Part shown: positions 1,723-64,000 of the stretch, piece by piece
How positions within the stretch are numbered: the first letter of the stretch is position 1
How the letters are laid out: each line of letters opens with the position of its first letter
Assembly: GCA_965246825.1 (NCBI GenBank)
Contig: OZ251990.1
Coordinates: forward strand, 3,894,541-3,958,540
Direction: 5' to 3'
DNA length: 64,000 nucleotides
Source: Chthonomonadaceae bacterium
GTDB lineage: Bacteria; Armatimonadota; Chthonomonadetes; Chthonomonadales; Chthonomonadaceae
Made by a program: the position numbers and the translations under genes
The notes under the pieces: model-generated
Told to the model about the DNA's origin: nothing
The model's database searches: none
The model's input: only the letters and a program-made list of their open reading frames with translations

Positions 1723-3663
1723 CTATCGTCCGCCGAGTTTCTCACAGATCGCGTCCACATCGTAGACGCAGCCGCCCCACGTTCCCCCGCTCACCCCTTG
1801 CAGAGCCGCCCACATTCGGGTGTCGTCGGGCAGGTCGGGATCGGGAGCGAGGTCGAGGCGCAGAGGACGGTTTTCCAAGCGGCGCGTCCCCTCTTCCGCT
1901 CCGTACACTTCGCCGTTTTCGCCAATCAGGTTCACCGTACCCAGAAGCTCGCTGCGGTCAATGACGATCTCGATCAGGTCGCCGTCGCGCACTTTCCCGA
2001 TGGCTCCCCCTGCCAGGGCTTCGGGGCCGATATGCCCGATGCAGGCTCCCGTCGAAACCCCCGAAAAGCGGGCGTCGGTGAGCACGGCCACCGTCTTCCC
2101 CCACGAAATGAACTTTAGAGCCGAAGTAATCTGATACGTTTCCTCCATGCCCGCGCCCATCGGCCCCCGGCAGATGAGCACCACAATGTCTCCGGGTTTC
2201 ACGGGGTTCTCGGTATGCCCCTTGATGGCGGCAATCGCGGCTTTTTCGGTGGTAAACACGCGGGCTGGCCCCCGCTTTCGATACACGTTGTCGGGGTCTA
2301 CGGTGTCAGGGGAAATCGCCGTAGACTTGATCACCGAGCCTTCGGGACAAAGGTTACCGACGGGGAAGGTGACCGTTGAAGTCAGCCCCTGCGCACGGGC
2401 GCGTTCCGGCGAAAGGATCACGTCATCGGGCGAGATGCCGTCCGCCTCCAGAAGCCGCGCCTTCAGCCGCCTTCTTCGCTCGGAAGCCTCCCAAAGTTCT
2501 AAATTCTCCCCCAGCGTTTTCCCGGAAACCGTCAGGCAGTCCAGGTGCAGCAGCCCCTGTTCGCGCAGGTGAAGCATGACTTCTGGCACACCCCCCGCCA
2601 GAAACAGGCGCACCGTCGGGTGATCGGTCGGGCCGTTTGGGAGCACATCCACAAGGCGCGGCACGGCACGATTGATCGCAGCCCAGTCGTCCACCGTCGG
2701 GCGGCGCACCCCGGCGGCAAAGGCAATCGCGGGGATGTGCAGCAGCAGGTTGGTGGAGCCGCCGCAGGCAGCATGAACCGCCATCGCATTCTCGAACGCT
2801 CTCTCCGTCAGGATGTCGCGGGACGTGATGCCGCGCTCCTCCAGTTCGACAAGAGCGCGGGCGGTTTCCCGCGCCGTCTCTTTCCAAATCGGCTGGCCGG
2901 AGGGGGCGAGCGCGGCATGGGGCAGGCTTAGTCCCAACGCCTCCGCCACCACCTGCGCAGTGGCCGCCGTCCCGAAAAACTGGCAGCCGCCCCCCGGCGT
3001 GGCGCAGGCACGGCAGCCCAGTTCCGCCGCTTCCTTCAGCGTAATCTGCCCATGTGCATAGCGTGCGCCAATCGTCTGGATTTTTCCGGCGTCCTCTCCG
3101 TTGGCGGGGGGCAGGGTCACGCCGCCGGGGACAAGGGCGACCGGAAGGTGATGCATGGAGGCCAGTGCGATGAGCATGGCGGGCAAACCTTTGTCGCAGG
3201 TAGCTACGCCGAGCACCCCCCGGCGGTTTGGCAGCGAGCGAATGAGCCGGCGGAACACCAGGGCAGCGTCATTTCGATACGCCAGCGAATCCATCATGCC
3301 GGTGGTTCCCTGCGTTCGCCCGTCGCAGGGATCGGAGACAAACCCGGCAAACGGCACACAGCCGAGGGCAGCAAATTCCTTTGCGGCGGCCTCCACCAAA
3401 AGCCCCACTTCCCAGTGCCCCGTGTGGTAGCCCAGGGCGATGGGCGAGCCGTCGGGCGCACGAACGCCGCCCTGCGTGGAGAGCAGCAAAAATTCGCGGC
3501 GGTCGGCGGTATCGGCGTTCCAGCCCATACCCACATTTTGAGAAAGCCCGAACAAGTCCCCGGAGGGACGATGCAGCAGCATCTCTTCGGTGAGGGGCAG
3601 CGAACCGGAGGGGCCGTCCGCTTTTGTAGCAACATCATAAAGGTCGGGGATCGGATTGTTCAT
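1723..3663 (-). CDS. IlvD/EDD-family dehydratase, long (646 aa) YjhG/YagF-like sugar-acid (xylonate-type) dehydratase
   Basis: Motifs [18 protein letters not shown] and [17 protein letters not shown]. Length and N-terminal extension fit the ~650-aa YjhG/YagF subgroup rather than IlvD. Confidence 0.8.
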
Positions 3664-48559: not shown

Positions 48560-50047
48560 CTACAGAATGTAGCGGCTGAGGTCTTCGTTTTTGGCAATCG
48601 TTTCCAGTTTCTCGCGGACATAGGCTCCGTCGAGGTGAACAGTTTTGTTGTCGAGGTCGGGAGCATCGAAAGAAAGGTCTTCGAGTAATTTTTCTATCAC
48701 GGTGTGCAGCCGCCGCGCCCCGATGTTTTCGGAAGTTCGATTGACCTCCGCAGCGATCCGGGCGAGTTCGTTGATCGAATCGTCGGAAAAGTCGAGCGAT
48801 ACGCCTTCGGTGGCGAGCAGGGCGACATACTGCCGGGTGAGGGCGTTTTTCGGCTCGGTAAGAATGCGCTTGAAGTCCGCTTCCGTCAGCGACTCCAGCT
48901 CCACGCGGATCGGCAGCCGCCCCTGAAGTTCGGGTATCAAATCGGAGGGCTTGGAAACATGAAACGCACCGGCAGCAATAAACAAAATATGATCAGTTTT
49001 CACCGGCCCAAATTTCGTGGTGACCGTCGAGCCTTCGATGATAGGCAGAATGTCGCGCTGCACCCCCTCGCGGGAAACATCCGGCCCTCCGCCGCCGTTT
49101 CCTGCCGACTTTCCACCTGCAATTTTATCAATTTCGTCAACAAAAATAATGCCGCTCTGCTCGGTGCGTTCAATCGCTTCGCGGGTCAGGGCATCCCGGT
49201 CAATCAGCAGTCCGGCCTCTTCTTCGGCAAAAATCTTTTTCGCCTCTCCAATCGTCACATTCCGCTGTTTGCTTTTACGGGGCATCAGGTTGCCGAGCGC
49301 ACTCTGCATATCCATCCCCATTTCTTCCATGCCGCCCGGTGAAAACACTTGCATAAAAGGCATATTCGGGGACTCTTCGACGGTGACATTCACTGGGTCT
49401 TCGTCTTTGACGCCGGATTTTACCTGATCGAGCAGCACTTTGCGGATGCGCTCGTAGCGGGCATGATCTTTTTTTTCTTCTTCGTCGTCCTGCTCTTTTT
49501 CTTCCGGTTCCGGGGGAGGCGTGGGAAGGCTCATTCCGCCGCCGGGATTGAAGAACTGACGGATCGCTTCCGCCATGTCTTTCGTGCCCTCTTCCGTGCG
49601 TTTACGGGCGGATTTGCGCGGCGCAGGCTGCAAAATATCCACGATGCGCTCGACGGCCCGGCGTTCGGCTTCCTCGCGCACCTCTTCTTTCTTTTCGTTT
49701 TCAACCAAGCGGATGGCGACTTGAACTAAATCACGGATCATGCTGTCCACATCGCGCCCGACATACCCGACTTCTGTGAATTTCGTGGCTTCCACCTTCA
49801 CAAAGGGAGCACGGGCGAGGGTTGCCAGACGACGGGCGATTTCGGTTTTGCCGCACCCGGTAGGGCCGATCATCAAGATGTTTTTGGGAATCACTTCGTC
49901 ACGCAGGTCTTCGCCCAAAAGTCGGCGGCGGTAGCGATTGCGGAGCGCAATCGCCACTGCCCGTTTCGCGCCATGCTGCCCCACAATATAACGATCCAGT
50001 TCCGCGACAATCTGAACCGGTGTTAAGTTCTCAATCATTTCTGCCAT
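48560..50047 (-). CDS. hslU: ATP-dependent protease ATPase subunit HslU
   Basis: [21 protein letters not shown]...[16 protein letters not shown], plus sensor and I-domain. No hslV is adjacent on either side. Confidence 0.9.
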
Positions 50048-50077: not shown

Positions 50078-51250
50078 TTAGTATAGCACGGAGGGGAAAC
50101 GGAATTCGCTTCGATCCAGGGTCGGTTTCTCCTCCGCTGCCCACTGCGCCAGAGCCTCGCCGATGGCGGCGGAGTGCTTGAACCCGTGCCCCGAACAGGG
50201 TGACGCCACAAAAACTTGTGGAAATTCCGGCAGGGCATCCAGTAGAAAGCGTGCATCGGGGGCAGCGGTATAAAGGCAGACGCGGGTCGCAGCACATTCG
50301 GTGCTCAAGGCGGGAAAGAAGGGCGCGATATTCTGACGGTGCATTGCCTCGATCTCTGCCTCCGAAACGCTGCGATCCACCGTTTCGGGGGTGGTGGTTT
50401 CGAGATAGGTTTCGGAGGCCGCCTTGACCAGATCGCCCGTTTCATTGAGAGCCGGAAAACCGTAAATCCCGGAGCCGCCGCGATCCTGCTCCCAGATGAA
50501 TACGGGAAAGCGTTCCGGGGAAAAAAGCGCGGGGTTTTCTCGAACCCGAAACCAGTACATCACCTGCCGGTAAACCGAAAGGGAAGCCCGCAGGGAAGGC
50601 AGCAGCTGCGAAACCCAGGCCCCGGCTCCAACGATCACCTTTTCCGCCCGATAAACCTCTCGTTCCGTTCGGATCGTGACGCCCCTCCCCGACGGTTGGG
50701 GAAGAATTTCCAGCACCTGCTCGTTGTAAGCAAGAACGGCTCCCAGCGATTTTGCCCGCTCCAGCTGCGCTTCCACACACGCTTCCGGGCGCACAAACCC
50801 GGCTCCAGGTTCATAGTAGCCGCGTTCGTCCCCGGAAAGCGAGAAGGCAGGAAATCGCGCATTGATGTCGGCGGCGGTCAGCCGTTCGTGCGGAATATGA
50901 AACGCTTCTGCCGTGCGGAGGGTTTGCTCGAAAAAGTTGGGCTTGCCATGAAGCCCTGCTGTTTTCCCGCCCGCAGCAAGAATCAGACCGCCGTTCTGCG
51001 TAAGAAGTGTGCGCCCGGTTTCTGCTTCGAGTTCGCGCCAGAGTTCGTGGGAGCGCAGCACAAACGGAACGTAGGCTGCCCCCTCGCCAATGGCCTGCCG
51101 CGTGACCCGGCTTTCGCCCTGCGTGGAACCGAGTGAATGCGGCGGCGTATACTGATCGAGTCCGATGACGCGCCCTCCCCGCCGGGCCATGTGATAGACG
51201 GCGGCAGCCCCCATCGCTCCCAGCCCCACCACAACGCAGTCGGCGTTCAT
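50078..51250 (-). CDS. FAD-dependent oxidoreductase (DAO/sarcosine-oxidase-like family)
   Basis: N-terminal VVVGLGAMGAAAVYHMARRGGRVIGLDQ (GxGxxG Rossmann) and a C-terminal SGHGFK motif. Overlaps the upstream CHAT gene by 4 nt. Confidence 0.75.
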   Translation of the reverse strand: MNADCVVVGLGAMGAAAVYHMARRGGRVIGLDQYTPPHSLGSTQGESRVTRQAIGEGAAYVPFVLRSHELWRELEAETGRTLLTQNGGLILAAGGKTAGLHGKPNFFEQTLRTAEAFHIPHERLTAADINARFPAFSLSGDERGYYEPGAGFVRPEACVEAQLERAKSLGAVLAYNEQVLEILPQPSGRGVTIRTEREVYRAEKVIVGAGAWVSQLLPSLRASLSVYRQVMYWFRVRENPALFSPERFPVFIWEQDRGGSGIYGFPALNETGDLVKAASETYLETTTPETVDRSVSEAEIEAMHRQNIAPFFPALSTECAATRVCLYTAAPDARFLLDALPEFPQVFVASPCSGHGFKHSAAIGEALAQWAAEEKPTLDRSEFRFPSVLY

Positions 51251-54156
51251 CGCGGGTCTCCGAGCAAAATAAAGGGAGACCAGTAATAAGGGTGGCTGTG
51301 TTTACCGTCCTCTTTCAGATAGAGGGCGGCATTTCGCAGAGCTTCACTTTTTCTCTGTTTCTTCAGAATGAGATTTCGATAGAATGAAGTCATCAAAGCG
51401 GCGGTGGAGGCGTCATCTACCGACCATTGACTGACCACCTGGGTGGGGCAGCCCGCCACAAACAAAGCCCAGGTCAGACCGATGATCCCCTCCCCCTCTT
51501 TGTTTTCCCCGCGTGCCGTATTGCAGGCGGAGAGAACCACCATTTCGGCGTTGAGGTGAAGTCCGGAAATCTCTCTCGCCGTAAGAAAGCCGTCCTCCTG
51601 AGCGTCTTCCGGCTGTGCCAGCACCACCGACGACAACAGCGGTGCGGCGTCGTTGACAAACCCATGCGTGGCAAAATGCACGAATCGGTAATCGCCCATG
51701 CTTTGTTTGACTGTGGTTTCCTGCGCCTTTTTCCCCGTCAGAACGAGGGACGCGGGAAAAAGATCCTGAAGTTCTTTGGCTTCGCGCTGAGTTCCAGGCA
51801 GGGCGGAGATTGCTCCTCCGCGATCTGAGGCAGCAATGAGACGCGCCGGGGTGTCCAGGGGCCGAGCGGGAGAGTCGAGAGGGCGGGAAGGCAGATCGAG
51901 AGGGCGCTGCGCTGAAACACCCTCTGGATCGCCGAAGCGGGCGGTAGTTCCAAAATCGGGGTCGGCACATACCAGCAGGTTTTTGGCGGCTTTGCGGCGG
52001 GCTTTGGAGGTCAGCATGAACTGCGCCCCCGTTGCAGAGTGAGCATAAGCGACCTCAAACCGATTGAGCAGACAGATTTTTTTCGTTCGGTTGGGCAGCA
52101 GGACGGCAAAGGGAACCTCCCACAAAACCCCGTCCGGGCAGATCAGCAGCCGCATTTTGCCTTTCAATTCCGGCTCCACAGGCTTGATGAGAACCCGGTA
52201 AAGTGCCTCGGCCTCGCCCTGAAACGCATTTTTCGGATTGGTGCAGTCCTTGCGAAGAGCACGGCAGCGTTTTTCCAGATCGGAGTGCTGGATTTTGACC
52301 GAGTAGGTTTTCAGGTGCGGCCTGCCGTTGTGCCGGGTGACTACAAACACGGCAAAATAATCTTCTGCCAGCGTTACATATTCCAGCAGGGCCGTTTTGT
52401 CTGGAAGCCACTTTCCAACCTCGTCGAGCGAGGCCGTTTTTGCAATCCGTTTCTGAACCAATTCCGGGTGACGGGCATAGAGAGTTTCGGTCAGCGTTTG
52501 GAGTTGATCTTCCGTTTTTTTGAGCTGCCCCTGAAGCGCAGCAAACCGCTTTTTGGCTCCCACCTCGTTTTCCACGCCTTCTTTCACCATCCGGGCGTTG
52601 AGTGCGTCGGCTTTGCGGCGCAGTTCCTGGTCTTGAAGCCGCTCCTGCGGGGTCAGGGAAGAATCGAGGTTCACTCTGCCGGAGGTAAGTAAATCGAGCA
52701 GCGAACGCGCCTTTGTTTTTTGTGCCAGCTCAAAAGCCTGCGTTTCCTTTTTCAATTCGATCAAGAGGTGCAAATAAGTATAGTAAGCGTCAATGTTGAG
52801 GGCGAGGCTGGAAGTTTTCGCTTCGGAATAGCCTCCGAGATTGGTGCGGTACTGTTCTTGCAGTGCCACAGCCTGCTGAGCATACACAAGTGCCGCTGCC
52901 GGACGCAGGCGAAACCGCTCCGTTTGCGCGGCGTTCTCCAGAGCCTTGGCTTGAATTCGGATTTCGTTGATACGGCGGGTCAGGGCAATGCATTGATTGA
53001 AATAAAGGAGGGCCTGCCGATGGTCTTTTTTTGCGGAATAAGTGAGACCAATTGAGTTGAGTTCGACTGCAGTCTCGGTATTTTTGTGAAGCTCCCGCTG
53101 GATCGCCAGGGCACGAAAAAGATAGGTCAAAGACTTCGCGTAATCTTTGGCGTCGCGGAACTCGCCGCCTAAATTCGCGAGGGAGGCCGCTTCGCCGACC
53201 CGATCCTTTGTTTCCAAAAAGATGGACAGAGATTTCTCGTAAAACTCCACCGCCTTCTTCGAGTTCTTCAACTCGGTGTTCAGTGTTCCGAGGGAAAGAT
53301 AGGTGCGGGCAATCCAGGATTTTTCGCCGAGTTCCAGGCGGATTTTAAGGGCTTGCTGATAATATTCCATCGCCTGAGCGTATTCGCCCAGGTCTTCATA
53401 AAGAACACCGATATTGTTGAGGGTTCCTGCCTGATCCTGCTTGCTGCCGGTTTCCCCGAAAATTGCTGCAGCGGACTGAAAGTACTCCAACCCTTTGCGA
53501 ACATTACCGAGGGTGTTCCAGAGCGTTCCGGCACGAAGATAGATCGTCCCCTTAATCCGCTTGTTGTCAACTTTGGGGAAAATCGAGACTACCTCTTCAT
53601 AGGTTGCTGCCGCTTGTGTTAGGGCTTCCCGCTGAAGTTGCATCAGTCCGAGCTGCTCCAGCGCATAGAGAAAATTGAGGGGATTGTTTTGCTGCCGAAA
53701 AAGCGATACGGCTTCCGCATAGTCTGCCTCCGCTTTTGCCGTCCGGCCCAATTCGAGTTCCATCAGCCCGCTTTTGTACAGGAAAAGCGCGATGCCTTCC
53801 GGGTAGGGGATTTTACGGGAGAGGGCCAGTGCCTGATCGTAGAGGTGCAGTGATTCTTCCCAGTGTTTGCGAAGGTAGGCGAGGTCGCCCAGCCCGCGAG
53901 TCGCTTCGGCCTCTCCCACCGGGTCGTTCAGTTCGCGGGCTTGGGTTAAGGCTTGCTGATCGAGTTTTTCCATGTCCTCCAGTTTCCCGGCTCTTCCGGC
54001 GTCGGCTCCCGCTTTGAGCAGAGTGCGGATTTCGGGTCGCATTTCTTTTTTCGGCGGAATTTGAGCCGAAATCGAAGCCGGGAAGGAAGAGCCGAGAAAA
54101 GCGAAACACCCGGTGATCGCCGAGCACAACAAAGACTGAGGGCGGCAGTGAGGCAT
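51247..54156 (-). CDS. TPR-repeat protein with C-terminal CHAT (caspase-like) protease domain; N-terminal signal peptide
   Basis: Signal peptide MPHCRPQSLLCSAITGCFAFLGSSFPASISAQ, many TPRs, and a C-terminal FVHFATHG...VVLSACNT (His/Cys dyad of CHAT). AGGAG ribosome-binding site before ATG 54156. Confidence 0.75.
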   Translation of the reverse strand: MPHCRPQSLLCSAITGCFAFLGSSFPASISAQIPPKKEMRPEIRTLLKAGADAGRAGKLEDMEKLDQQALTQARELNDPVGEAEATRGLGDLAYLRKHWEESLHLYDQALALSRKIPYPEGIALFLYKSGLMELELGRTAKAEADYAEAVSLFRQQNNPLNFLYALEQLGLMQLQREALTQAAATYEEVVSIFPKVDNKRIKGTIYLRAGTLWNTLGNVRKGLEYFQSAAAIFGETGSKQDQAGTLNNIGVLYEDLGEYAQAMEYYQQALKIRLELGEKSWIARTYLSLGTLNTELKNSKKAVEFYEKSLSIFLETKDRVGEAASLANLGGEFRDAKDYAKSLTYLFRALAIQRELHKNTETAVELNSIGLTYSAKKDHRQALLYFNQCIALTRRINEIRIQAKALENAAQTERFRLRPAAALVYAQQAVALQEQYRTNLGGYSEAKTSSLALNIDAYYTYLHLLIELKKETQAFELAQKTKARSLLDLLTSGRVNLDSSLTPQERLQDQELRRKADALNARMVKEGVENEVGAKKRFAALQGQLKKTEDQLQTLTETLYARHPELVQKRIAKTASLDEVGKWLPDKTALLEYVTLAEDYFAVFVVTRHNGRPHLKTYSVKIQHSDLEKRCRALRKDCTNPKNAFQGEAEALYRVLIKPVEPELKGKMRLLICPDGVLWEVPFAVLLPNRTKKICLLNRFEVAYAHSATGAQFMLTSKARRKAAKNLLVCADPDFGTTARFGDPEGVSAQRPLDLPSRPLDSPARPLDTPARLIAASDRGGAISALPGTQREAKELQDLFPASLVLTGKKAQETTVKQSMGDYRFVHFATHGFVNDAAPLLSSVVLAQPEDAQEDGFLTAREISGLHLNAEMVVLSACNTARGENKEGEGIIGLTWALFVAGCPTQVVSQWSVDDASTAALMTSFYRNLILKKQRKSEALRNAALYLKEDGKHSHPYYWSPFILLGDPR

Positions 54157-54188
54157 GGAACTACTCCTAAACAGTAAATGAGACCGGA

Positions 54189-56972
54189 TTAATGAGGCTG
54201 TTCTTCGGGAGCGGGCTGCGTTTGTGCGAGAGCCTCCGAAATCACTCTCTCCAGCGACTGAGTTTTCAGAAACTCTCTCAAGCGCTCTCTTTCTTCCTGC
54301 GAAGCCCCAGTCGTTTCTGTCATTCGCTGCACTTCCAAAACCACCGGGTCGGGGGAGCGAATTTCACGCAGCAGTCGTTCGGCGGAAAGGAGAAGCAAAA
54401 CGGCGCGGTCGGTGTCGCCGAGCTGCGCGACTGCCTCTCCGAGATTGGCGAGCGCGAACGCAATGCCAGGGACATGGCGCAGGTTGTGCTCGTAGCCCAA
54501 TGCTTCGGAGTAGTGATCCCAGGCCGCCCGGTACTTTTGCTGATAAAATGCCCCGACCCCCAGATTATTGAGGGTTTCGGCAATTCCTCGGCGGTCATCG
54601 AGCCTGCGCCGCAGCTTCAAGGCTTCCTGCAGGTGGGTTTCTGCTTTGACAAAGCGGTCGGGGCCATGCGCTGCATCGCGATGAAACAGCACCCCCAGAT
54701 TGTTATAAACAATAGCAATGCCTACCGTATTTCCGGCAATCTGGAAAAGTTTCAGGGACTGAATAAAATGCTCTTCCGCTTTAGAAAAGGCTTTTTCCTG
54801 CATTTTCACCTGCCCCAGCAAATTTTCTGCTTTGGCAAGCCCGCCGATTTCCTGAGACTCCATCAGCAGCGTTTTCGCCTCCGCGATCAGCTTTCCGGCC
54901 TCTTCCCCCTGTCCATAATCGAAATGAAGTCCAGCGCGTTCCAGCATCAACCGTGCGGTCAGCGAGGGGAAATCGGCTTTGCAGGGATGGATTTGCTCCA
55001 GCCCTGCCTGGAGGGTTTCGGCGGCATCTTGAAGAAATCCCTGCCGGGTCAAGGCAGTTCCTACAGCGAGGGCCAATTCTGCAAACAGCTCCGGGCTTTC
55101 CGATAGGCTCGCCCAATCCAGAGCGGCTTTCAGATTGCTGCGATTGACCTCCAATTCTCTCAGGGCTTCGGCTTCACGTGCGGTACGAGCCTGCCCCAGC
55201 CGTTCCTGAGCAAACCGCAGAAAGTGAGCGGCATGGCGATGACAGACCGCGTTTTCCTGCTGCAATTCCATCAGCTTTTCGGCGGCGTACTCACGCAGGC
55301 TTTCCAGCATCAGAAAGCGTGTTTCTTCTTGGGAGGCATCCATTTCCAGGCGAAAAAACGACTGCTGCCGAAGGGCGATCACGCTCTCGAACACATCGAA
55401 GGCTTCGCACACCGCTTCGGCGTCCGCGAGTGTAAACCCGCCAACAAACACCGACACCTGCGCGAAAACCGATTTGTCTTCGTCGGTAAGAAGGCAGTAA
55501 GACCAGTCAATCGCTCCGCGCAGGGCACGCTGACGGGGAGAAAGGTCGGGCGAACGCGACTGAAGCAGCCGAAAACGTTCATTTAATCGTTGCAAAATCT
55601 GTTTCGGCGTCATCCCCACAATTCTCGATGCGGCCAGTTCCATCGCCAGTGGAACCCCTTCAAGCCGCTCGCAGAGGGTTTCCACCTCGGTTCGGTTTTC
55701 ATCCGTCAGGGTAAAATCGGGCCGAAATTCCGCCGCTCGCTCCACAAAGAGACGGGCAGACTCCACCCGGCTCATCGGCATGAGTTCCAACACCGTTTCG
55801 CCCCGCACCTCCAAGGCCCGCCGGGAAGTGACCAGACATTTGATTTGCTGGGCGGCACTGAGCAGGTCGCGCACGATGAGGGCGGCGTTTTGGATTTGTT
55901 CGAGGTTATCTAAGATCAGCAGAGCGCGTTTGTCACGCAAAGCCCCAAAAATCTGCTCTTTAATGCTGGGGGTCGGCTGGAGGATCAAAGCCAGGTGTTC
56001 GGCAATGCGGCGCACCATTTCGTCGGCGGTTCGCGTTTGTTCCAGGTCAAACCACCAGACCCCATCGGAAAATTGTTCGATCACCCTTTCCCCGATTTGC
56101 ATAGCGACGCGGGTTTTTCCAATTCCGGCAAACCCAGTCACCGTAAAAAGGCGGTGCGTGGCCTTTTTTACCAGATCGGCCCACTCGGAAATTTCGGTTT
56201 CGCGTCCGACAAAAGCCGTCAGCTGCTGGGGCAGATTCTGGATCGTTGTTTTTTGCGCCTGAAGAGAGGGAAAGTCTGCTCGAAGCCCTGCGTGAACGAG
56301 CTGGTAAATACGGATTTGTTCGATGTCACGAAGCCGATGGGAGCCGAGGTCGCGAAGCGACGCGCCCTGCGGAAGCCCCTCCCGCAACAGCGCAAAAGTG
56401 GTATCGGAAAGCAAAATCTGCTCTCCGTAAGCCAATTCAAGCAGCCGGGAAGCCCGGTTCAGAGGCTGTCCATAATAGTCGCTGCCCCGCAGTTCCGCCG
56501 AACCGGTGTTAAGGGCCATTCGTACTTTCAGAGAGGTGCGGGCATCCCACGCCTCTTTTTGCAGTTCTGTTTGTGCGGTCCAGGCTCCCGCTACGGCAGA
56601 GCGCACATCGGCGAACACCGCATAAAACGCATCTCCCGCCGTTTTGAAGATTTGGCCGTCGCACCCTTCAACGGCCTGACGAATGATTTCATCGTGGCGT
56701 GCCAAAGCAGTTCGCATTGCTTCCGGGTAAAACTCCCAGAGCCGCGAACTTCCTTCGATGTCGGTAAACAAAAAAGTGAGGGTTCCGCTTGGTAAAAGCA
56801 CAAACTTTCCTCTGCTCGCGCCAGCGCGATGGATCCTTCGAGATACCGCTCTATTCGGCACACCGAAAGGGTTTTCCTTTTTAGAACGGAGGGGCACACG
56901 GCTTAAACTCACTCGGCGAGAAAAACCGAACTTATTTTCGAGGTTTGTGCGGTTAAGCGAAAGAGCGTACAT
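54189..56972 (-). CDS. class III adenylate/guanylate cyclase domain fused to NB-ARC-like STAND NTPase and TPR repeats
   Basis: Cyclase motifs FLFTDIEGSSRLWE, KTAGDAFYAVF and LNTGSAELRG. P-loop LFTVTGFAGIGKTRVA, an LVTSRRALEVRGE motif, then TPRs. Start uncertain: ATG 56972 is used here, and the maximal ORF reaches 57029. Confidence 0.7.
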   Translation of the reverse strand: MYALSLNRTNLENKFGFSRRVSLSRVPLRSKKENPFGVPNRAVSRRIHRAGASRGKFVLLPSGTLTFLFTDIEGSSRLWEFYPEAMRTALARHDEIIRQAVEGCDGQIFKTAGDAFYAVFADVRSAVAGAWTAQTELQKEAWDARTSLKVRMALNTGSAELRGSDYYGQPLNRASRLLELAYGEQILLSDTTFALLREGLPQGASLRDLGSHRLRDIEQIRIYQLVHAGLRADFPSLQAQKTTIQNLPQQLTAFVGRETEISEWADLVKKATHRLFTVTGFAGIGKTRVAMQIGERVIEQFSDGVWWFDLEQTRTADEMVRRIAEHLALILQPTPSIKEQIFGALRDKRALLILDNLEQIQNAALIVRDLLSAAQQIKCLVTSRRALEVRGETVLELMPMSRVESARLFVERAAEFRPDFTLTDENRTEVETLCERLEGVPLAMELAASRIVGMTPKQILQRLNERFRLLQSRSPDLSPRQRALRGAIDWSYCLLTDEDKSVFAQVSVFVGGFTLADAEAVCEAFDVFESVIALRQQSFFRLEMDASQEETRFLMLESLREYAAEKLMELQQENAVCHRHAAHFLRFAQERLGQARTAREAEALRELEVNRSNLKAALDWASLSESPELFAELALAVGTALTRQGFLQDAAETLQAGLEQIHPCKADFPSLTARLMLERAGLHFDYGQGEEAGKLIAEAKTLLMESQEIGGLAKAENLLGQVKMQEKAFSKAEEHFIQSLKLFQIAGNTVGIAIVYNNLGVLFHRDAAHGPDRFVKAETHLQEALKLRRRLDDRRGIAETLNNLGVGAFYQQKYRAAWDHYSEALGYEHNLRHVPGIAFALANLGEAVAQLGDTDRAVLLLLSAERLLREIRSPDPVVLEVQRMTETTGASQEERERLREFLKTQSLERVISEALAQTQPAPEEQPH

Positions 56973-56978
56973 TCCTTT

Positions 56979-58286
56979 GTGTCGGCGCGAGAAAAGGAAA
57001 CGGAATTGAGCGATTTGCAGGACGGACAATTGATAGAACGCTACGTGGAAGCAGGCTCAGAGCGAGCCTTCAGTGAGCTGGGGAGGCGCTACGCTCGGCT
57101 CGTTTACTCTACTTGCCTGCGTGAACTCCATGACCGCTCGCTGGCAGAAGAGGCTTCTCAGGCGGTGTTTCTCCTGCTCGCCCGCAAGGGGAAATCACTC
57201 ACCCGTCAGGCTTCAGTTGCGGGATGGCTTTTCACGGCATCCCGGCTTGTGTCGCAAAATCTGCGAAAACAGGAGAGGCGGCGCAAATTCATGGAAGAGA
57301 GGGCAGCAGGCGAAATGACCGATCCCCCGATCCCCCCGGAAAACGCGCTTTGGGAAGGCTTGGAACCCCACCTCAATACCGCTCTGGCTCACTTGAAACC
57401 GGGGGATCGTGAGGCGATCCTTCTGCGCTTTTTCGAGGAGCGAAGTTTTGCGGAGACCGGAGCCGCCTTGGGATTATCGGAAAATACTGCCCGAATGAAA
57501 GTGACTCGTGCCCTCGACAAACTGAGGCGGCAGCTTGCAAAGGCCGGGGTTGTCGTCTCCGTCACTGTGCTGGCGGCTCTGCTTCCGCAGTATGGGGCGC
57601 GGGCTTCCTCCTCCGTATTGGCTCAGGCGATCCCGCAAATTGCCGCAGGCATGGCCGCCTCCTCCCTGGCTCCTTTTTCGGGGCGGGCGCAGGCTCTGGC
57701 TCGCACCGCTCAACGGGCTCAGCAGTTCTCTTTTTCCAGAAAGGCCGCTTTTTATCTGGTGCTCGGCACTTCGGGAGCACTGCTGGGCGGAGCAAAACTC
57801 AAGACGTACCGAGAGCCGCTCGTTCTGGCTGAAACCCGGCGGGCGGCTTTCGCCTCCCTCGCCGGAACCTGGAGTGGAACCCTGGAATACGCCGATGACG
57901 GAGACGGAGCGCACCACACCTACCCCACCACCCTTGTTCTGTCCGCCGACCCAGCAGCGGGAACGCTTCAATACCGCGCCGCCTATGCGGGTTCAAGCCG
58001 CGTGGACGCCTGGACGGGATCGCTCGACCTTAAATCGGGGCAGTTCACCACCAGTGGAATTCAAGACGGCAGGCCAAAACGTCTGGTCTACCTTGTGGAG
58101 GGACTGGAGGCGTTCGTCAAAAAAACCGGGGGATTCATCATGACCACCCATGATCCTTTTGCTCACTGGGATACCCGGCAGACGATTGTCCAAAAGGGCA
58201 GCCGCCTGACCTGGAGCGAAGAAGTGCGACCGAACGACGGGCAGTACCGTTTTCGCAACCGCTTCGAGCTTGTCCGTACCTTCTGA
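56979..58286 (+). CDS. ECF sigma factor fused to a transmembrane helix and ~230-aa C-terminal extracytoplasmic domain
   Basis: Region 2 (RAFSELGRRYARLVYSTCLR...EEASQAVFLLLARK), region 4 (ILLRFFEERSFAETGAALGLSENTARMKVTRALDKLR), TM helix AGVVVSVTVLAALLP, then an unrelated C-terminal domain. GTG start. Confidence 0.65.
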   Translation: MSAREKETELSDLQDGQLIERYVEAGSERAFSELGRRYARLVYSTCLRELHDRSLAEEASQAVFLLLARKGKSLTRQASVAGWLFTASRLVSQNLRKQERRRKFMEERAAGEMTDPPIPPENALWEGLEPHLNTALAHLKPGDREAILLRFFEERSFAETGAALGLSENTARMKVTRALDKLRRQLAKAGVVVSVTVLAALLPQYGARASSSVLAQAIPQIAAGMAASSLAPFSGRAQALARTAQRAQQFSFSRKAAFYLVLGTSGALLGGAKLKTYREPLVLAETRRAAFASLAGTWSGTLEYADDGDGAHHTYPTTLVLSADPAAGTLQYRAAYAGSSRVDAWTGSLDLKSGQFTTSGIQDGRPKRLVYLVEGLEAFVKKTGGFIMTTHDPFAHWDTRQTIVQKGSRLTWSEEVRPNDGQYRFRNRFELVRTF

Positions 58287-60161: not shown

Positions 60162-60593
60162 GTGCGAAATTGGGGTTTAGCGGCTTTTGCCGCACTGGTG
60201 CTCACCGGATTTGCCTTACCGTCCGATAGTCTTCCTTCTCCCTCAATCCCCTGGGAAACGAATCTGGATGCGGCCCAGAAACGAGCCGCCAAAGAAAACA
60301 AACCGCTTTTCCTGGATTTTTCGGCGCAATGGTGCACCCCCTGCCAGAAAATGCTTGCTACTACCTACAAAGACAAAAAAGTGGTGGCAAAAATGAAGCA
60401 GTTTATTCCCGTGCTCCTCGACTACGATCAAAGCAGACCGACCGTCAAAAAGTACGGCGTGGATTCCCTGCCGACCTTTCTCTTTTTCGCTCCGAACGGC
60501 AAAGAGATCAAACGGATCACGAAATTCCAAAGTCCGAAGGCTTTGCTCCAGCAGATGCAGTCCTCCCTCAAGAAAGCTGCAGCGAAGTCCTAA
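60162..60593 (+). CDS. secreted thioredoxin-like protein (CxxC), third paralog
   Basis: Signal peptide, then LFLDFSAQWCTPCQKM. Confidence 0.6.
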   Translation: MRNWGLAAFAALVLTGFALPSDSLPSPSIPWETNLDAAQKRAAKENKPLFLDFSAQWCTPCQKMLATTYKDKKVVAKMKQFIPVLLDYDQSRPTVKKYGVDSLPTFLFFAPNGKEIKRITKFQSPKALLQQMQSSLKKAAAKS

Positions 60594-60694
60594 CAAAGGC
60601 CGACAAAAACGCCCCTCTTAATCTCAGAGGGGCGTTCTCATTTTTTGGCTGCGTTTGCTTTGCAATGCAGGCTCTCAAATCGGTTCACTCAACT

Positions 60695-62170
60695 TTACCC
60701 AACGCTTTTGAGAAAGCGAGCCGCCTCTTTCTCATAAGTATGGAAGGGGTTTTTGAGATCGAGCTGCTTGTTGCGTTCCACATAAATGGCGTCCCAGTCA
60801 ATGACGTAACGGGCATTCGGTTTGGTGAGCAAAGTAGAGATGATCTGTCCCCGCCCGGCGGCGCGGGTGTCCGTCGGCGGGCAGGTGATCGCTTTTTGCA
60901 CCTCTTCGTCGGTCACGAGCCGGCGGATCGCCCCCGCCTCTTCCAGCCCATAGTAAAGCCCCTGGGTCGGGTTGACGTTGTGGTATTCGAGATCGAGGCT
61001 TTGCAGCATATCGTCGTGCCAGGTCACGCCGTTTTCTTGAATATAGTCCCGGTAAAGCAGGAATTTCGCCGACCAGTCTAAACGGTCTGCGGTTGAGAGC
61101 GGATCGGTTTCAAGAGCGTCAAGAATCGTTTCCCACTCGCGCAACACGATGTCGGTTTGTTCACTTTTCTGGCCCTGGTATTTTTTGGCGGCATCCAAAT
61201 ACCGACGCTGAAGATCAATCGCCGAGATGGTTTTTCCGTTTCGGAGTTTCACCGTCCAGCGGAATGTAGGGTCACGGGAAATCGAGCGCAGCGTTTCCAG
61301 CGGGTCGGCCACCTCCACATCCTGCGGCACAATTCCCTCTTCGATCAAATCGAGCACCAGACTTGTCGTTCCAACCTTCAGCATCAGCGCGTATTCACTC
61401 ATATTCGACTCGCCGTAGAGAATATGAAGCCGGTGCAGATTGCTGTAGGAATAGTAGGAATCCCATTTCGGGTTGATGATTGCCCGATTGAAACGCACCC
61501 GTGACGAGATGGTTTTGACAATGTGGTCGGCCCGCTGCGACAACTGAAAATCTACCGTTTTGTCAATTTCGACCCCGTAGAAGTTGGAAACCCAAACGTA
61601 ATCCACTTCATGTTCGCCAAGGGTCATGATATTGTTTTTGGAGGAGGGACGAGTTAAACGATGCCCCCCCACCCTGCCGATTCCCGCGAAGATTTGCCGG
61701 GTAACGAGAAAAGGCAGCAAATAAGTGAGGGCGTCGGTAAAAAACCGATCTTCGATTTGTACAAGATAGTTTTCGTGACAGCCGAAGGTGTGCCCGCCAA
61801 AGTGGTCAATGCTGTTGTTATGAAAACTGACCGCCTCATCGAGATCGAGTTCCTGCAGGAGTTGAGCGAGCAAAATGCGTCCTGCCCGGTCGTGGCGCAC
61901 AAGATCGAGCAGATCGGAGCACTCTGCCGTAGCGTATTCCTCGTGGCTCCCGACCGCATCAATGTAGAGACGCCCGCCGTTAGTGAGAAAGCCGCCTGCC
62001 CGCGCCGGTTCAAATGCATAGTCGCGGGCATGAAGATCAATCACGCCCAGTTTCTTTTCATAAAAGGCGTAATCTTTGACCTGCTCGACAATTTCTTCTG
62101 GCGTTCCTACAGAAGGGTCGCGCACCATACAGCCGAATTCCGTCTCAATGCCAAAAATTCGCTTTTCCAT
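60695..62170 (-). CDS. Pup ligase/deamidase family protein (PafA/Dop family; PafA-like by position)
   Basis: MEKRIFGIETEFGCM...GGRLYIDAVGSHEEYATAEC closely parallels the PafA/Dop N-terminus (M..RIMGIETEFG...YLDVGSHPEYATAEC). AGGAA ribosome-binding site. Confidence 0.75.
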   Translation of the reverse strand: MEKRIFGIETEFGCMVRDPSVGTPEEIVEQVKDYAFYEKKLGVIDLHARDYAFEPARAGGFLTNGGRLYIDAVGSHEEYATAECSDLLDLVRHDRAGRILLAQLLQELDLDEAVSFHNNSIDHFGGHTFGCHENYLVQIEDRFFTDALTYLLPFLVTRQIFAGIGRVGGHRLTRPSSKNNIMTLGEHEVDYVWVSNFYGVEIDKTVDFQLSQRADHIVKTISSRVRFNRAIINPKWDSYYSYSNLHRLHILYGESNMSEYALMLKVGTTSLVLDLIEEGIVPQDVEVADPLETLRSISRDPTFRWTVKLRNGKTISAIDLQRRYLDAAKKYQGQKSEQTDIVLREWETILDALETDPLSTADRLDWSAKFLLYRDYIQENGVTWHDDMLQSLDLEYHNVNPTQGLYYGLEEAGAIRRLVTDEEVQKAITCPPTDTRAAGRGQIISTLLTKPNARYVIDWDAIYVERNKQLDLKNPFHTYEKEAARFLKSVG

Positions 62171-62221
62171 TTCGTTCCTGTACCGATTCGTTCTCTCTGC
62201 GTCGGAGAAAACGGAGAGACA

Positions 62222-63016
62222 CTATTGATGCTTGTAGTCAGCGAGCAAAAGGGTCAGGTCTTCTTCCGTCAGCAGACGAAACCGGCTTTCCCGCTTTGTG
62301 TCGCGCTCTAAAATTCCAACCTCGACGCTGCCCGTTTTCAGTTCGTCCAGCAAAAACGCCCGGTTTGCCTCGGCTTCGTCCAGGTCGCGAAGCGGATTGA
62401 GGTCTTCCTCATCGCGGGCGTACTGCGGCTTGATGGCTTCTCGCGCCCCGACAATCCAGGCACTGAGAGCTTTCTGAAGAGCCTCTTCACGCCCAAGGCT
62501 GTGGGAAGCCCCTTCCAGGCGTTCCAGCATTTTGTCCTCGGCATCTTGGCTTCCGGCGATCACGGCGTACTCAGGGTAAATACGAAATTCGCCATCATAA
62601 TTGAGCGTGTAAAATCCGTCACCTTCCGGCTTTTTGCCAATTTCAGCAAAAAGGGCCCGGATGACATAGGGGACGCCGGAGAACATATCTCCATACGATT
62701 GTTTAAGCGAGGGACTGAGCACAAACCCAACTAGACGCTGAAGGGTCACATCGTCGGGGCTGCGCTCAAATCCTTCCTGATGGGCAATTTGAATGGTTTT
62801 GACCCGGACGTTTTCGATGTCGGACTGCATTCCGATGGCCGAAAACATCTGCCGATCATACAATTCATACACTTTTCGCTGCGAGCGGCGCACCGTTAGC
62901 AACAGCATTCCTTTATCGAAACTCACCCCGACAACGGGCGAGCCTTCGCGGAGGCGGTTTTCAACATTGTCTTTTCGGTAGCCAGCGGCTTCCTCACGGT
63001 CATAAGGGGTAAACAT
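62222..63016 (-). CDS. prcA: 20S proteasome alpha subunit (PrcA-like)
   Basis: Start chosen at ATG 63016 (MFTPYDRE... aligns with the PrcA MSFPYF... start). ELYDR and YDG motifs. The maximal ORF starts with GTG at 63043. Confidence 0.7.
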   Translation of the reverse strand: MFTPYDREEAAGYRKDNVENRLREGSPVVGVSFDKGMLLLTVRRSQRKVYELYDRQMFSAIGMQSDIENVRVKTIQIAHQEGFERSPDDVTLQRLVGFVLSPSLKQSYGDMFSGVPYVIRALFAEIGKKPEGDGFYTLNYDGEFRIYPEYAVIAGSQDAEDKMLERLEGASHSLGREEALQKALSAWIVGAREAIKPQYARDEEDLNPLRDLDEAEANRAFLLDELKTGSVEVGILERDTKRESRFRLLTEEDLTLLLADYKHQ

Positions 63017-63158
63017 CAGTGACAATCTTTCATTCTTATCCACAGTTCGGCACAGAAGAGCACAGATTAAAACGCAAATTACGAGAGCATCTCTACTTTT
63101 ATTCGGAATTGGTCATCTCTGTTTTGCTGTACCGGTCTGGGGATCAATCTTCAAACCA

Positions 63159-63989
63159 CTATCTTTTGCGACCGCCGGTTTCGCGGTCAATGGCATCCAT
63201 GACACGAGACAGTTCCTCCTCGGAAACGTCCTCAATGCCGTCTGCGGTGATGGTTTTGGCGAGCGGGAAAACTTTCTGAAAGCCTCCCGTGGCGGCGTCG
63301 AGATCGGCGGCAATATCAAGCAAAAATAAGGCTTCTTTCAGGGCTTCGTCGCGGGTCATATCGTGAAAGGGCTTTTTCGTTTTCACAATATAATCAAAAA
63401 TTCCGCGTATTTGAGTGGAGCCAGACCCCGCCGCGCCGTATTCGGTGCTCTCAAAACGTGCCCCCGCGCCATCATAGAAGAAAATCCGTCCTTCGTTCGT
63501 TTCGCGATCAAAGGTGGTTAGGATCGGAATAAAGCCGCCGATGCCGCTCATCGCTTCGGCGATTCCGGCGCGAACCACTTTGGCGAGTTCGGCGAGTTTC
63601 CCATCAAGGCTCATCTGCTGAAGGTAGGTGCGCTCAAACAGCTTGAAGGTGGTTCGGAGGTAGCGTACTACTTCCATCGCACGCGCAAAGGAGCCGGAAA
63701 TGGCGAGCAGGGTGTAGTCGTCAATCGGCAGAACTTTTTCGGATCGGTCGTACATCACGGCAAAGCCCGCCGTTGCCCGACGGTCGCCGACGGTAATCAC
63801 GCCGCTGTCGAACTTAACAGCAATCACGGTCGTTCCGTGCGTATCAATCACACCTGGCCCGGCGTGGCTGTCGTTTGGGCGCACACCGGGAGTTTGAGCG
63901 GGAAGCGCGAGAGACCGGGTCAGCGGATGACCACTTTGCTCCAGCAATTCCCACAAGCCGCGTTGAATCTCCATTGAAATTTTTGTCAC
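63159..63989 (-). CDS. prcB: 20S proteasome beta subunit (PrcB-like) with propeptide
   Basis: Ntn-hydrolase motif ...DTHG/TTVIAVKFDSGVITVGDRRATAG with a ~50-aa propeptide. Start is GTG 63989 or ATG 63974. The frame may extend past the right window edge. Confidence 0.7.
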   Translation of the reverse strand: MTKISMEIQRGLWELLEQSGHPLTRSLALPAQTPGVRPNDSHAGPGVIDTHGTTVIAVKFDSGVITVGDRRATAGFAVMYDRSEKVLPIDDYTLLAISGSFARAMEVVRYLRTTFKLFERTYLQQMSLDGKLAELAKVVRAGIAEAMSGIGGFIPILTTFDRETNEGRIFFYDGAGARFESTEYGAAGSGSTQIRGIFDYIVKTKKPFHDMTRDEALKEALFLLDIAADLDAATGGFQKVFPLAKTITADGIEDVSEEELSRVMDAIDRETGGRKR

Positions 63990-64000
63990 TTCCTCATTAA

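Follow-up and report, generated by a model that had tools for sequence, protein, structure and literature searches.

Distal genes of a probable UBact-proteasome operon at the edge of a 64-kb sequence from a Chthonomonadaceae bacterium

The window, by which we mean the whole 64-kb stretch of DNA analysed, holds at its right edge three co-directional genes on the minus strand in the order prcB-prcA-pafA (Table 1). They lie where the initial annotation had placed a proteasome beta subunit, an alpha subunit and a PafA/Dop-family enzyme, and their products matched PF00227, TIGR03690, TIGR03691 and PF03136 far better than by chance; all three scored below the NCBIfam equivalog cut-offs. The prcA gene begins 142 nt downstream of prcB, and upstream of the prcB ATG the window extends for a further 26 nt. 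The start codons given for these two genes are probable ones: that of prcB follows the homologous 271-aa genes in two related loci (L001 and L060), its reading frame being open up to GTG 63989 (63159..63989, 276 aa), and the frame of prcA is open up to GTG 63043 (62222..63043, 273 aa).

Table 1 Features at the right edge of the window
Feature	Position	Strand	Description
prcB, 20S proteasome beta subunit	63159..63974	minus	271 aa from ATG 63974; PF00227, TIGR03690
prcA, 20S proteasome alpha subunit	62222..63016	minus	264 aa from ATG 63016; TIGR03691
pafA-type gene, predicted UBact--protein ligase, carboxylate-amine ligase fold	60695..62170	minus	491 aa, MEKRIFGIETEFG...; PF03136
G+C-rich hairpin, 11 pairs	60608..60636		terminator-like consensus match only; T-run on plus strand

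The hairpin lies between the 3' end of the pafA-type gene and a convergent thioredoxin-like gene (60162..60593, plus strand) and probably ends the operon as its terminator. No matches in 59 related loci were obtained for the thioredoxin-like, YceI, sigma-factor and cyclase-NB-ARC-TPR genes that follow downstream of pafA, and conservation is thus confined to the proteasome cluster. The Rfam search of the window returned only a tRNA, and ARAGORN predicted two tRNAs and no rRNA. Genes for Mpa, Dop and UBact were not found elsewhere within the 64 kb, in agreement with the earlier statement that pup and Mpa/ARC are not in the window.

The prcB product matched PF00227 (Proteasome) with 103.7 bits (E = 1.2e-29) in the profile search, above the Pfam gathering score of 22.4, and the bacterial 20S beta model TIGR03690 with 155.5 bits (E = 1.7e-45), below the NCBIfam equivalog cut-off of 191.9. 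TIGR03690 is tuned to actinobacterial sequences and is still the best-scoring family for PrcB by a wide margin; the best solved relatives are the PrcB proteins of Rhodococcus and M. tuberculosis (E = 1e-29). Indeed, the propeptide and the TTVIAV Thr1 motif noted initially are both present: a propeptide of 47 aa precedes Thr1 in HG/TTVIAV (the slash stands before Thr1), which aligns with HGTTIVAL of the Rhodococcus beta subunit, and Asp17 and Lys33 are in place. HslV, Anbu and BPH proteins have in common with PrcB the Ntn-hydrolase fold and a nucleophilic Thr at the N-terminus, but the window locus differs in having a dedicated alpha subunit gene adjoining prcB. An HslV/Anbu identity, named at the outset as the alternative, was ruled out by the HMM scores (16–21 bits for the HslV models vs 155 bits for bacterial 20S beta). 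An hslU gene is present elsewhere in the window (48560..50047), with no hslV adjoining.

The prcA product matched the bacterial 20S alpha model TIGR03691 with 71.5 bits (E = 6.6e-20; NCBIfam cut-off 139), and its PF00227 score of 22.1 bits fell just below the gathering score of 22.4. Its only solved relatives in the PDB are PrcA of M. tuberculosis and Rhodococcus (E = 3e-11), and it is 93% identical at the amino acid level to the homolog in L001. By these matches we classify PrcA as a divergent member of the bacterial alpha-subunit family.

Since no rRNA was found in the window, protein homology served to place the phylum. The best matches of the PafA-type protein, PrcB and a xylonate dehydratase encoded 58 kb away all came from Chthonomonadaceae/Armatimonadota. 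The PafA-type protein was 100% identical to a public-database protein and 82% identical to that of Chthonomonas calidirosea; the dehydratase, encoded at the opposite end of the window, had a 100% database match as well, and its named matches were Chthonomonadaceae. The identity of PrcB was 66–94% within Chthonomonadaceae/Chthonomonadales, about 56–70% to other orders of Armatimonadota, 53–60% to Bipolaricaulota/Fraserbacteria and 34% to Nonomuraea. Judged by homology, the source belongs to Armatimonadota, family Chthonomonadaceae, and not to Actinobacteria, as the initial annotation had suspected when it spoke of a non-actinobacterial genome.

The layout of 58 related non-actinobacterial loci was (Mpa)-Dop-UBact-PrcB-PrcA-PafA. 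A UBact ORF lay directly upstream of prcB in all 55 testable loci and Dop upstream in 45 of 46, PafA was found downstream of prcA in 28 of 31 (with a gap below 300 nt in 22), and Mpa was present within 10 kb in 16 of 22 loci and not found there in the other six. The order prcB-prcA-pafA, correctly described before as unlike the mycobacterial layout, is thus no local peculiarity, being kept in those 28 loci. In the closest relatives, L060 and L061 (PafA 94% identical in amino acids) and L001 (PrcB 94%), Mpa, Dop and UBact stand exactly where the window ends; L060 has, all on one strand, Mpa, three small ORFs, Dop, UBact, PrcB, PrcA and PafA. The Dop-loop paralog of the relatives scored 478–482 bits on TIGR03688, and their Mpa-like protein, which has both proteasomal-ATPase OB domains, 422–436 bits on TIGR03689. 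The UBact gene encodes 64 aa with the C-terminus YRQRSG[E/Q] and matched PF20513 (E = 5.8e-22) and NF033388 (80 bits, cut-off 35); of 56 UBact ORFs, 32 end in YRQRSGE and 24 in YRQRSGQ, the same E/Q split as in Pup. The prediction that a tag, dop and Mpa/ARC lie past the right edge was therefore borne out in the nearest relatives, but the tag there is UBact ending in RSG[E/Q] and not a Pup ending in GGQ or GGE. In some Chthonomonadaceae relatives, mpa and dop, or prcA and pafA, are separated by unrelated genes. The cluster is conserved across Armatimonadota (Chthonomonadales, Armatimonadaceae, Capsulimonadales and Abditibacteriaceae), where its inheritance is apparently vertical, and MAGs of Bipolaricaulota and Fraserbacteria share it.

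We conclude that the right edge of the window very probably cuts through a UBact-proteasome operon belonging to a bacterium of Armatimonadota (Chthonomonadaceae), and that the window holds the distal genes of this operon, for PrcB, PrcA and the PafA-type ligase; ubact, dop and mpa would be present in this genome as they are in the relatives. By homology with the mycobacterial Pup-proteasome system, PrcA and PrcB would assemble into an alpha7-beta7-beta7-alpha7 20S particle, and the beta propeptide would be removed autocatalytically, exposing Thr1. The tag would be the disordered 64-aa UBact encoded just upstream of prcB in the relatives, ending ...YRQRSG-E or -Q, the latter form needing prior deamidation by Dop. 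With ATP, the PafA-type enzyme would phosphorylate the gamma-carboxylate of the C-terminal Glu of UBact and then move the tag onto a substrate lysine, producing an isopeptide. An Mpa/ARC-like AAA+ hexamer would recognise the tag, unfold the substrate and feed it into the 20S core, and Dop would remove the tag. A literature search found no biochemical study of UBact conjugation, and to our knowledge the UBact system has never been tested biochemically.

The 491-aa PafA-type protein matched PF03136 (Pup_ligase) over profile positions 1–440 of 441 (E = 8.6e-135, 450.5 bits). It scored 331.5 bits on TIGR03686 (PafA), below the equivalog cut-off of 551.3, vs 307.9 bits on TIGR03688 (Dop), where the match was split into two stretches. 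Its GhExE motif reads G7-I-E9-T-E11 and is, together with D71, invariant in 45 homologs. The catalytic Asp71 lies within LYID-AVGSH-EEYATAEC, so that the protein has D-AVGS-H-E-E-Y in place of the Dop context D-H-[AG]-H-P-E-Y, and the full Dop-loop of ~37–40 aa is absent (24–30 residues short); the upstream Dop paralog of the relatives has both the loop and the context. The spacing from GhExE to Asp is 60 residues, compared with 46 in actinobacterial PafA, 84 in actinobacterial Dop and 88–90 in UBact-locus Dop, and the segment is thus 14 residues longer than in actinobacterial PafA and not identical to it.

The positions discriminating PafA from Dop were taken from Table 1 of Hecht et al. 2020 (PMC7947786). 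The PafA state was found at 11 of them (positions 7, 10–15, 25, 29, 30 and 46 of that table), seen as F61, the V73-G74-S75 insertion, A80-T81-A82, H216, S222-S223 and D458; the Dop state was found at position 6, neither state at positions 5, 9, 26–28 and 31–33, and positions 3 and 4 were not alignable. The majority is PafA-like, the alpha-loop partly so. In M. smegmatis PafA, Thr183/Thr184 and Arg193 of the alpha-loop are important for ligase activity (PMC7947786); the window enzyme has V225, R226 and K235 instead, which are invariant in its subfamily, and it has a conserved ~30-aa insertion specific to this subfamily at about residues 169–205. Judging by the missing full Dop-loop and by the PafA signatures about the catalytic Asp and at the C-terminus, the protein is probably PafA-type and belongs to a divergent subfamily with the insertion and altered alpha-loop residues. 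The proposal to decide between ligase and deamidase by Dop-loop and PafA signatures was in this way answered for the loop, and only in part for the signatures.

Overall similarity, the fold search and a crude tree did not separate PafA from Dop for this protein. It is equidistant from actinobacterial PafA (35.3% identity) and Dop (35.0%), and among solved proteins its sequence matched Dop (4b0r/5lrt, 247.6 bits) best, with PafA (4b0t) scoring 206.9 bits. The AF2 model was good overall (pLDDT 84, pTM 0.88), but with pLDDT below 50 at residues 171–199, 217–226 and 234–239, which include the alpha-loop; used in Foldseek, it matched Dop and PafA structures equally at TM 0.72–0.79 (0.78 vs 0.79 for the two enzymes), so that ligase and deamidase were not told apart by alpha-loop conformation. 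In a neighbour-joining tree, actinobacterial PafA paired with actinobacterial Dop in 187 of 200 bootstraps and PafA with PafA in 13; this tree of UBact-locus PafA and Dop with one actinobacterial reference pair, built by a distance method only, is little trusted owing to likely compositional bias and long branches.

The closer solved Dop match, the indifferent fold search, the replaced Thr-Thr and Arg193, the longer segment before Asp71 and the low model confidence exactly at the alpha-loop would all fit a second deamidase/depupylase (a Dop-like hydrolase) or a catalytically altered paralog in place of a ligase. We nevertheless regard such an enzyme as improbable: most of a Dop-loop is missing, ~20 alignable discriminating positions give the PafA state 11 times and the Dop state only once, the PafA model outscores the Dop model, and in the relatives a genuine Dop-like paralog is already encoded upstream of UBact. 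Moreover, a conserved G-[EQ] tag and a de-conjugating enzyme need a ligase, for which the conserved cluster holds no other candidate. It is conceivable, if rather unlikely, that the UBact-locus enzyme is no simple ortholog of actinobacterial PafA with the same working; its active site or substrate gate may be built differently, and it may even owe its origin to a separate duplication, at which the crude tree hints. The features behind this thought are the ~30-aa insertion, V-R for Thr-Thr, Lys-Trp for the essential Arg193-Asp and the 14 additional residues before Asp. If it were true, then, given also an Mpa that has no GQYL tail, tagging and docking in the Armatimonadota system would follow rules unlike the mycobacterial paradigm.

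Tagging and the 20S particle could also be uncoupled, UBact conjugation being non-degradative and the proteasome working with another activator or none, much as corynebacteria have pupylation without a proteasome and mycobacteria have ATP-independent activators. The Mpa of UBact loci ends in ...RRNII and lacks the penultimate Tyr that the GQYL docking motif of Actinobacteria has; in several loci unrelated genes stand between mpa and dop, in the six loci mentioned above no mpa was found within 10 kb, and Pup/PafA occur without proteasome genes in Plesiocystis and Rhodopirellula (Iyer et al., PMC2588565). We consider this very unlikely in view of the tight linkage of UBact, prcB, prcA and pafA, conserved across several phyla (55/55, 28/31), and of the Mpa-like protein, which keeps both OB domains with its TIGR03689 score and could still, by a conserved hydrophobic C-terminus, dock into pockets of the alpha ring. 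As for the source of the genes, an actinobacterial origin with subsequent transfer to other phyla was proposed by Hecht et al. (PMC7947786), and two loci of the related set, both from MAGs, bear the labels Actinomycetes (L041) and Chloroflexota (L056). Recent horizontal acquisition from Actinobacteria, or an actinobacterial or chimeric contig, is however effectively refuted by the identity of only 34–35% to actinobacterial proteins, by identities that drop in step with Armatimonadota taxonomy, by the even G+C across the window (0.53–0.63) and by the housekeeping-type dehydratase gene 58 kb away, which points to the same lineage.

The mycobacterial/actinobacterial Pup system resembles the UBact operon in its 20S alpha and beta subunits, which are homologous and include Thr1/Asp17/Lys33 and a propeptide in the beta subunit; in its two paralogous enzymes of carboxylate-amine-ligase fold, one with and one without the Dop-loop; and in having a short tag with G-E or G-Q at its end and an AAA+ ATPase with double OB domains. 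It differs in that Pup ends in GG[EQ], whereas UBact of the relatives ends in YRQRSG[EQ]; in that pafA lies apart from prcA (in the Nonomuraea control locus L059 about 1 kb containing other ORFs separates prcA from the start of pafA), whereas in the window it follows prcA directly; in a protein identity of only about 35%; in the PafA subfamily of UBact loci, with its ~30-aa insertion and INPKWDSY for INTRDEPH; and in the Mpa tail, GQYL vs RRNII. From the UBact-proteasome locus, on the other hand, nothing substantive distinguishes the present genes, of which the window shows the last three only: the closest relatives have the Mpa-Dop-UBact-PrcB-PrcA-PafA set in this order, and their UBact scores above the PF20513/NF033388 cut-offs. 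The 2017 description by Lehmann and colleagues is said to name Armatimonadetes among its phyla and reportedly gave exactly the gene order of the present cluster.

The genes in the window very probably belong to the standard, already described UBact-proteasome cluster of non-actinobacterial bacteria. Outside Actinobacteria, reports of Pup-like tagging linked to proteasome genes go back to 2008 (PMC2588565), UBact-proteasome loci of Gram-negative phyla were described by Lehmann, Udasin, Livneh and Ciechanover (BBRC 2017, doi 10.1016/j.bbrc.2017.01.037, as cited in PMC5751360), and together with PMC7947786 these papers already cover the system in non-actinobacterial bacteria, Armatimonadetes among them, so that the novelty implied at the outset is not supported. 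The discovery value is small, since the UBact variant was described in 2017, Pfam and NCBIfam models exist and the protein is already in public databases. What the locus offers is a record of cluster conservation across Armatimonadota and, in the subfamily features of the ligase and the ATPase, concrete handles, for example in the cultured Chthonomonas calidirosea.

The three ORFs that lie on the minus strand in the same direction at 60695-64000 had been proposed in the initial annotation to encode a proteasome beta subunit, an alpha subunit and a PafA/Dop-family enzyme, and family models confirmed all three assignments. For the prcB ORF, PF00227 (proteasome domain) gave E 1.2e-29 and TIGR03690 (bacterial 20S beta subunit) gave E 1.7e-45 with 155.5 bits, whereas HslV models reached only 16-21 bits. 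Homologs of 94% identity begin at the ATG equivalent to the start listed in the table, and the resulting protein has a 47-aa propeptide, the cleavage site G/TTVIAV, and Thr1, Asp17 and Lys33. The nearest solved structures are PrcB of Rhodococcus and Mycobacterium. PrcA is a divergent bacterial alpha subunit scoring slightly below the Pfam gathering score; the only relatives with known structures are PrcA of mycobacteria and Rhodococcus. The prcA gene is followed after a compact 51-nt gap by the gene for a 491-aa protein that covers the Pup_ligase family PF03136 from end to end. A G+C-rich hairpin separates this gene from a convergent thioredoxin-like gene.

Features of the window discussed in the text
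Feature	Coordinates	Strand	Assignment
Xylonate dehydratase gene	1723..3663		
Dockerin-tailed protein, 1051 aa	39330..42485		
hslU	48560..50047	-	TIGR00390, 630 bits (cut-off 362)
Two large signalling/STAND-type genes, side by side	51247..57029	-	
G+C-rich hairpin	60608-60636		
PafA-type gene, 491 aa	60695..62170	-	PF03136, E 8.6e-135
prcA	62222..63043, start probably ATG 63016	-	TIGR03691, E 6.6e-20
prcB, 271 aa	63159..63989, ATG start at 63974	-	PF00227, TIGR03690

The initial annotation had left it to a later check whether the 491-aa protein is a ligase or a deamidase. For this distinction, we relied on the positions that Hecht et al. 2020 list as discriminating (Table 1, PMC7947786) and on alignments that included 41 PafA-type and 46 Dop-type proteins of related loci; the verified actinobacterial reference pair came from a Nonomuraea locus (L059; Dop 780 bits with TIGR03688, PafA 759 bits with TIGR03686). 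The check favoured a ligase. The GhExE motif and the catalytic Asp are 60 residues apart, compared with 84 in actinobacterial Dop, 88-90 in the Dops of UBact loci (UBact is a Pup-like tag) and 46 in actinobacterial PafA, and the full Dop-loop is absent. The context of the catalytic Asp, LYID-AVGSH-EEYATAEC, follows the PafA pattern (inserted Val, Gly-Ser, Ala-Thr-Ala) and not the Dop pattern D-H-A-H-P-E-Y-S-T-P. Phe61, His216, Ser222-Ser223 and Asp458 are further PafA states; overall, the alignable discriminating positions show the PafA state in 11 cases, the Dop state in 1 and neither state in 8. With the TIGR models, the protein scored 331.5 bits for PafA vs 307.9 bits for Dop, and in related genomes a clear Dop (478-482 bits with TIGR03688) is encoded as a separate paralog.

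However, several observations weaken the assignment as PafA. The protein is nearly equally identical to actinobacterial PafA (35.3%) and Dop (35.0%), its best solved sequence match is a Dop, and in a Foldseek search with its AlphaFold2 model (pLDDT 84, pTM 0.88) Dop and PafA structures matched equally. In a crude neighbor-joining tree of the related loci and L059, actinobacterial PafA paired with actinobacterial Dop, and not each with its presumed ortholog from the UBact loci, in 187 of 200 bootstraps, which could be a compositional or long-branch artefact or hint at separate duplications. Furthermore, V225, R226 and K235 stand in place of the alpha-loop Thr-Thr and of Arg193, residues of M. 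smegmatis PafA that are important for its activity (PMC7947786), and these substitutions are invariant in the subfamily. The UBact-type PafA subfamily also has a conserved insertion of ~30 residues at roughly 169-205 (GGHRLTRP..KNNIMT.GEHEVDYVWVSNFYGVEID) and carries INPKWDSY (residues ~233-239) where actinobacterial PafA, actinobacterial Dop and UBact-locus Dop share INTRDEPH. AlphaFold2 confidence fell below 50 exactly at this insertion, at alpha-loop residues 225-226 and in the 233-239 segment. On balance, the sequence features indicate that the 491-aa protein is very probably the ligase of the system, belonging to a divergent UBact-type PafA subfamily.

The genes for the tag, a Dop paralog and the Mpa/ARC ATPase had been expected just past the right edge of the window, and related genomes support this expectation well by proxy. 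In the locus with a 94% identical PrcB (L001), a 64-aa ORF ending in ...RKYRQRSGE lies upstream of prcB, preceded by a Dop-like gene. In the locus with a 94% identical PafA (L060), a single strand first encodes an Mpa-like AAA+ ATPase, which has both of the proteasomal OB domains; three small ORFs follow, and then come Dop (508 aa), UBact (64 aa), PrcB (271 aa), PrcA (265 aa) and, last, PafA (491 aa). The 64-aa ORF of the relatives matched Pfam PF20513 (E 5.8e-22) and the NCBIfam equivalog NF033388, "ubiquitin-like protein UBact" (~80 bits, cut-off 35). Across 58 non-actinobacterial loci, each feature being counted over the loci where it was testable, a UBact ORF was located directly upstream of prcB in 55/55, a Dop paralog upstream in 45/46, an Mpa-like gene at most 10 kb upstream in 16/22, and a PafA-type gene downstream of prcA in 28/31 (with a gap <300 nt in 22). 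Because of these counts, we conclude that the compact order prcB-prcA-pafA is the standard layout of UBact-type loci. Several Chthonomonadaceae genomes have unrelated genes between mpa and dop (L003:5375-7700; L060:2199-3883), for example for a HEPN-domain protein or a weak methyltransferase match, and inserts of 0.6-1.7 kb between prcA and pafA occur in L002, L005, L007, L015, L017 and L021.

The suggestion that the genome is not actinobacterial was borne out. Since the window contains no rRNA genes, its placement rests on protein homology. One database protein is 100% identical to the 491-aa protein, a Chthonomonas calidirosea protein is 82% identical, and the remaining named relatives are mostly from Chthonomonadaceae, Chthonomonadales or Armatimonadetes. 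A search with PrcB that took a single genome for each species yielded 59 loci. PrcB of Chthonomonadaceae and Chthonomonadales was 66-94% identical, that of other Armatimonadota families ~56-70%, that of Bipolaricaulota and Fraserbacteria MAGs 53-60%, and that of Nonomuraea, the sole actinobacterial locus, 34%. The xylonate dehydratase encoded at the other end of the window also has a 100% database match, its best named matches being from Chthonomonadaceae and other Armatimonadota, and G+C content is uniform over the whole window. These homologies place the contig in Armatimonadota, not Actinobacteria, and the proteasome cluster does not appear to have been imported recently.

UBact is covered by curated models in Pfam and NCBIfam, which gave matches in the relatives. 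Lehmann and colleagues are reported to have described the locus Mpa-Dop-UBact-PrcB-PrcA-PafA in 2017 in Nitrospirae, Verrucomicrobia, Armatimonadetes, Nitrospinae, Planctomycetes and candidate phyla. The cluster of the window is thus an already known system, which the initial annotation read correctly: clusters of Pup, PafA and proteasome genes in non-actinobacterial genomes have been on record since 2008 (PMC2588565), Hecht et al. (PMC7947786) mention Dop and PafA homologs from Armatimonadetes, the name UBact goes back to Lehmann et al. 2017 (as referenced in PMC5751360), and the curated models are available. In the literature searched, we found no experimental studies of UBact conjugation.

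All enzymatic steps of the UBact system are inferred here by homology with the Pup-proteasome system, whose chemistry was predicted by Iyer et al. (PMC2588565). PrcA and PrcB would form the 20S particle, with self-processing of the beta subunit exposing Thr1. The PafA-type enzyme would use ATP to ligate the gamma-carboxylate of the C-terminal Glu of UBact to substrate lysines; Dop would deamidate tags ending in Gln and strip tags off substrates, and the Mpa-like ATPase would recognize the tag, unfold the substrate and feed it into the 20S core. At the sequence level, a conserved chemistry is best supported by the C-termini of the tags: YRQRSG is invariant in 56 UBact ORFs, with E as the last residue in 32 loci and Q in the other 24, a dichotomy (YRQRSG[E/Q]) like that of GGE and GGQ in Pup. 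The ends differ even between closely related Chthonomonadaceae.

Mildly new are the insertion and active-site substitutions of PafA, the RRNII tail of Mpa and the presence of hslU without hslV. All 29 Mpa/ARC-like ATPases of UBact-type loci (L002-L056; e.g., L060:309-2114) have a basic stretch near the C-terminus and then, as their last residues, [NSKHG]-[IV]-[IVLM], with RRNII or a close variant in 13; therefore, they lack the Tyr that is penultimate in the known motif for docking to the 20S particle, in contrast to the Nonomuraea Mpa, which ends in GQYL. No hslV-like ORF was detected beside hslU or anywhere in the 64 kb by tblastn with an E. coli HslV sequence as query. The hslU gene is located ~10.6 kb from the proteasome genes, flanked by an N-methyltryptophan-oxidase-like gene and a xylulokinase gene. 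The signalling/STAND-type pair encodes a TPR-CHAT protein of 969 aa and an adenylate/guanylate-cyclase-NB-ARC-TPR protein of 946 aa.
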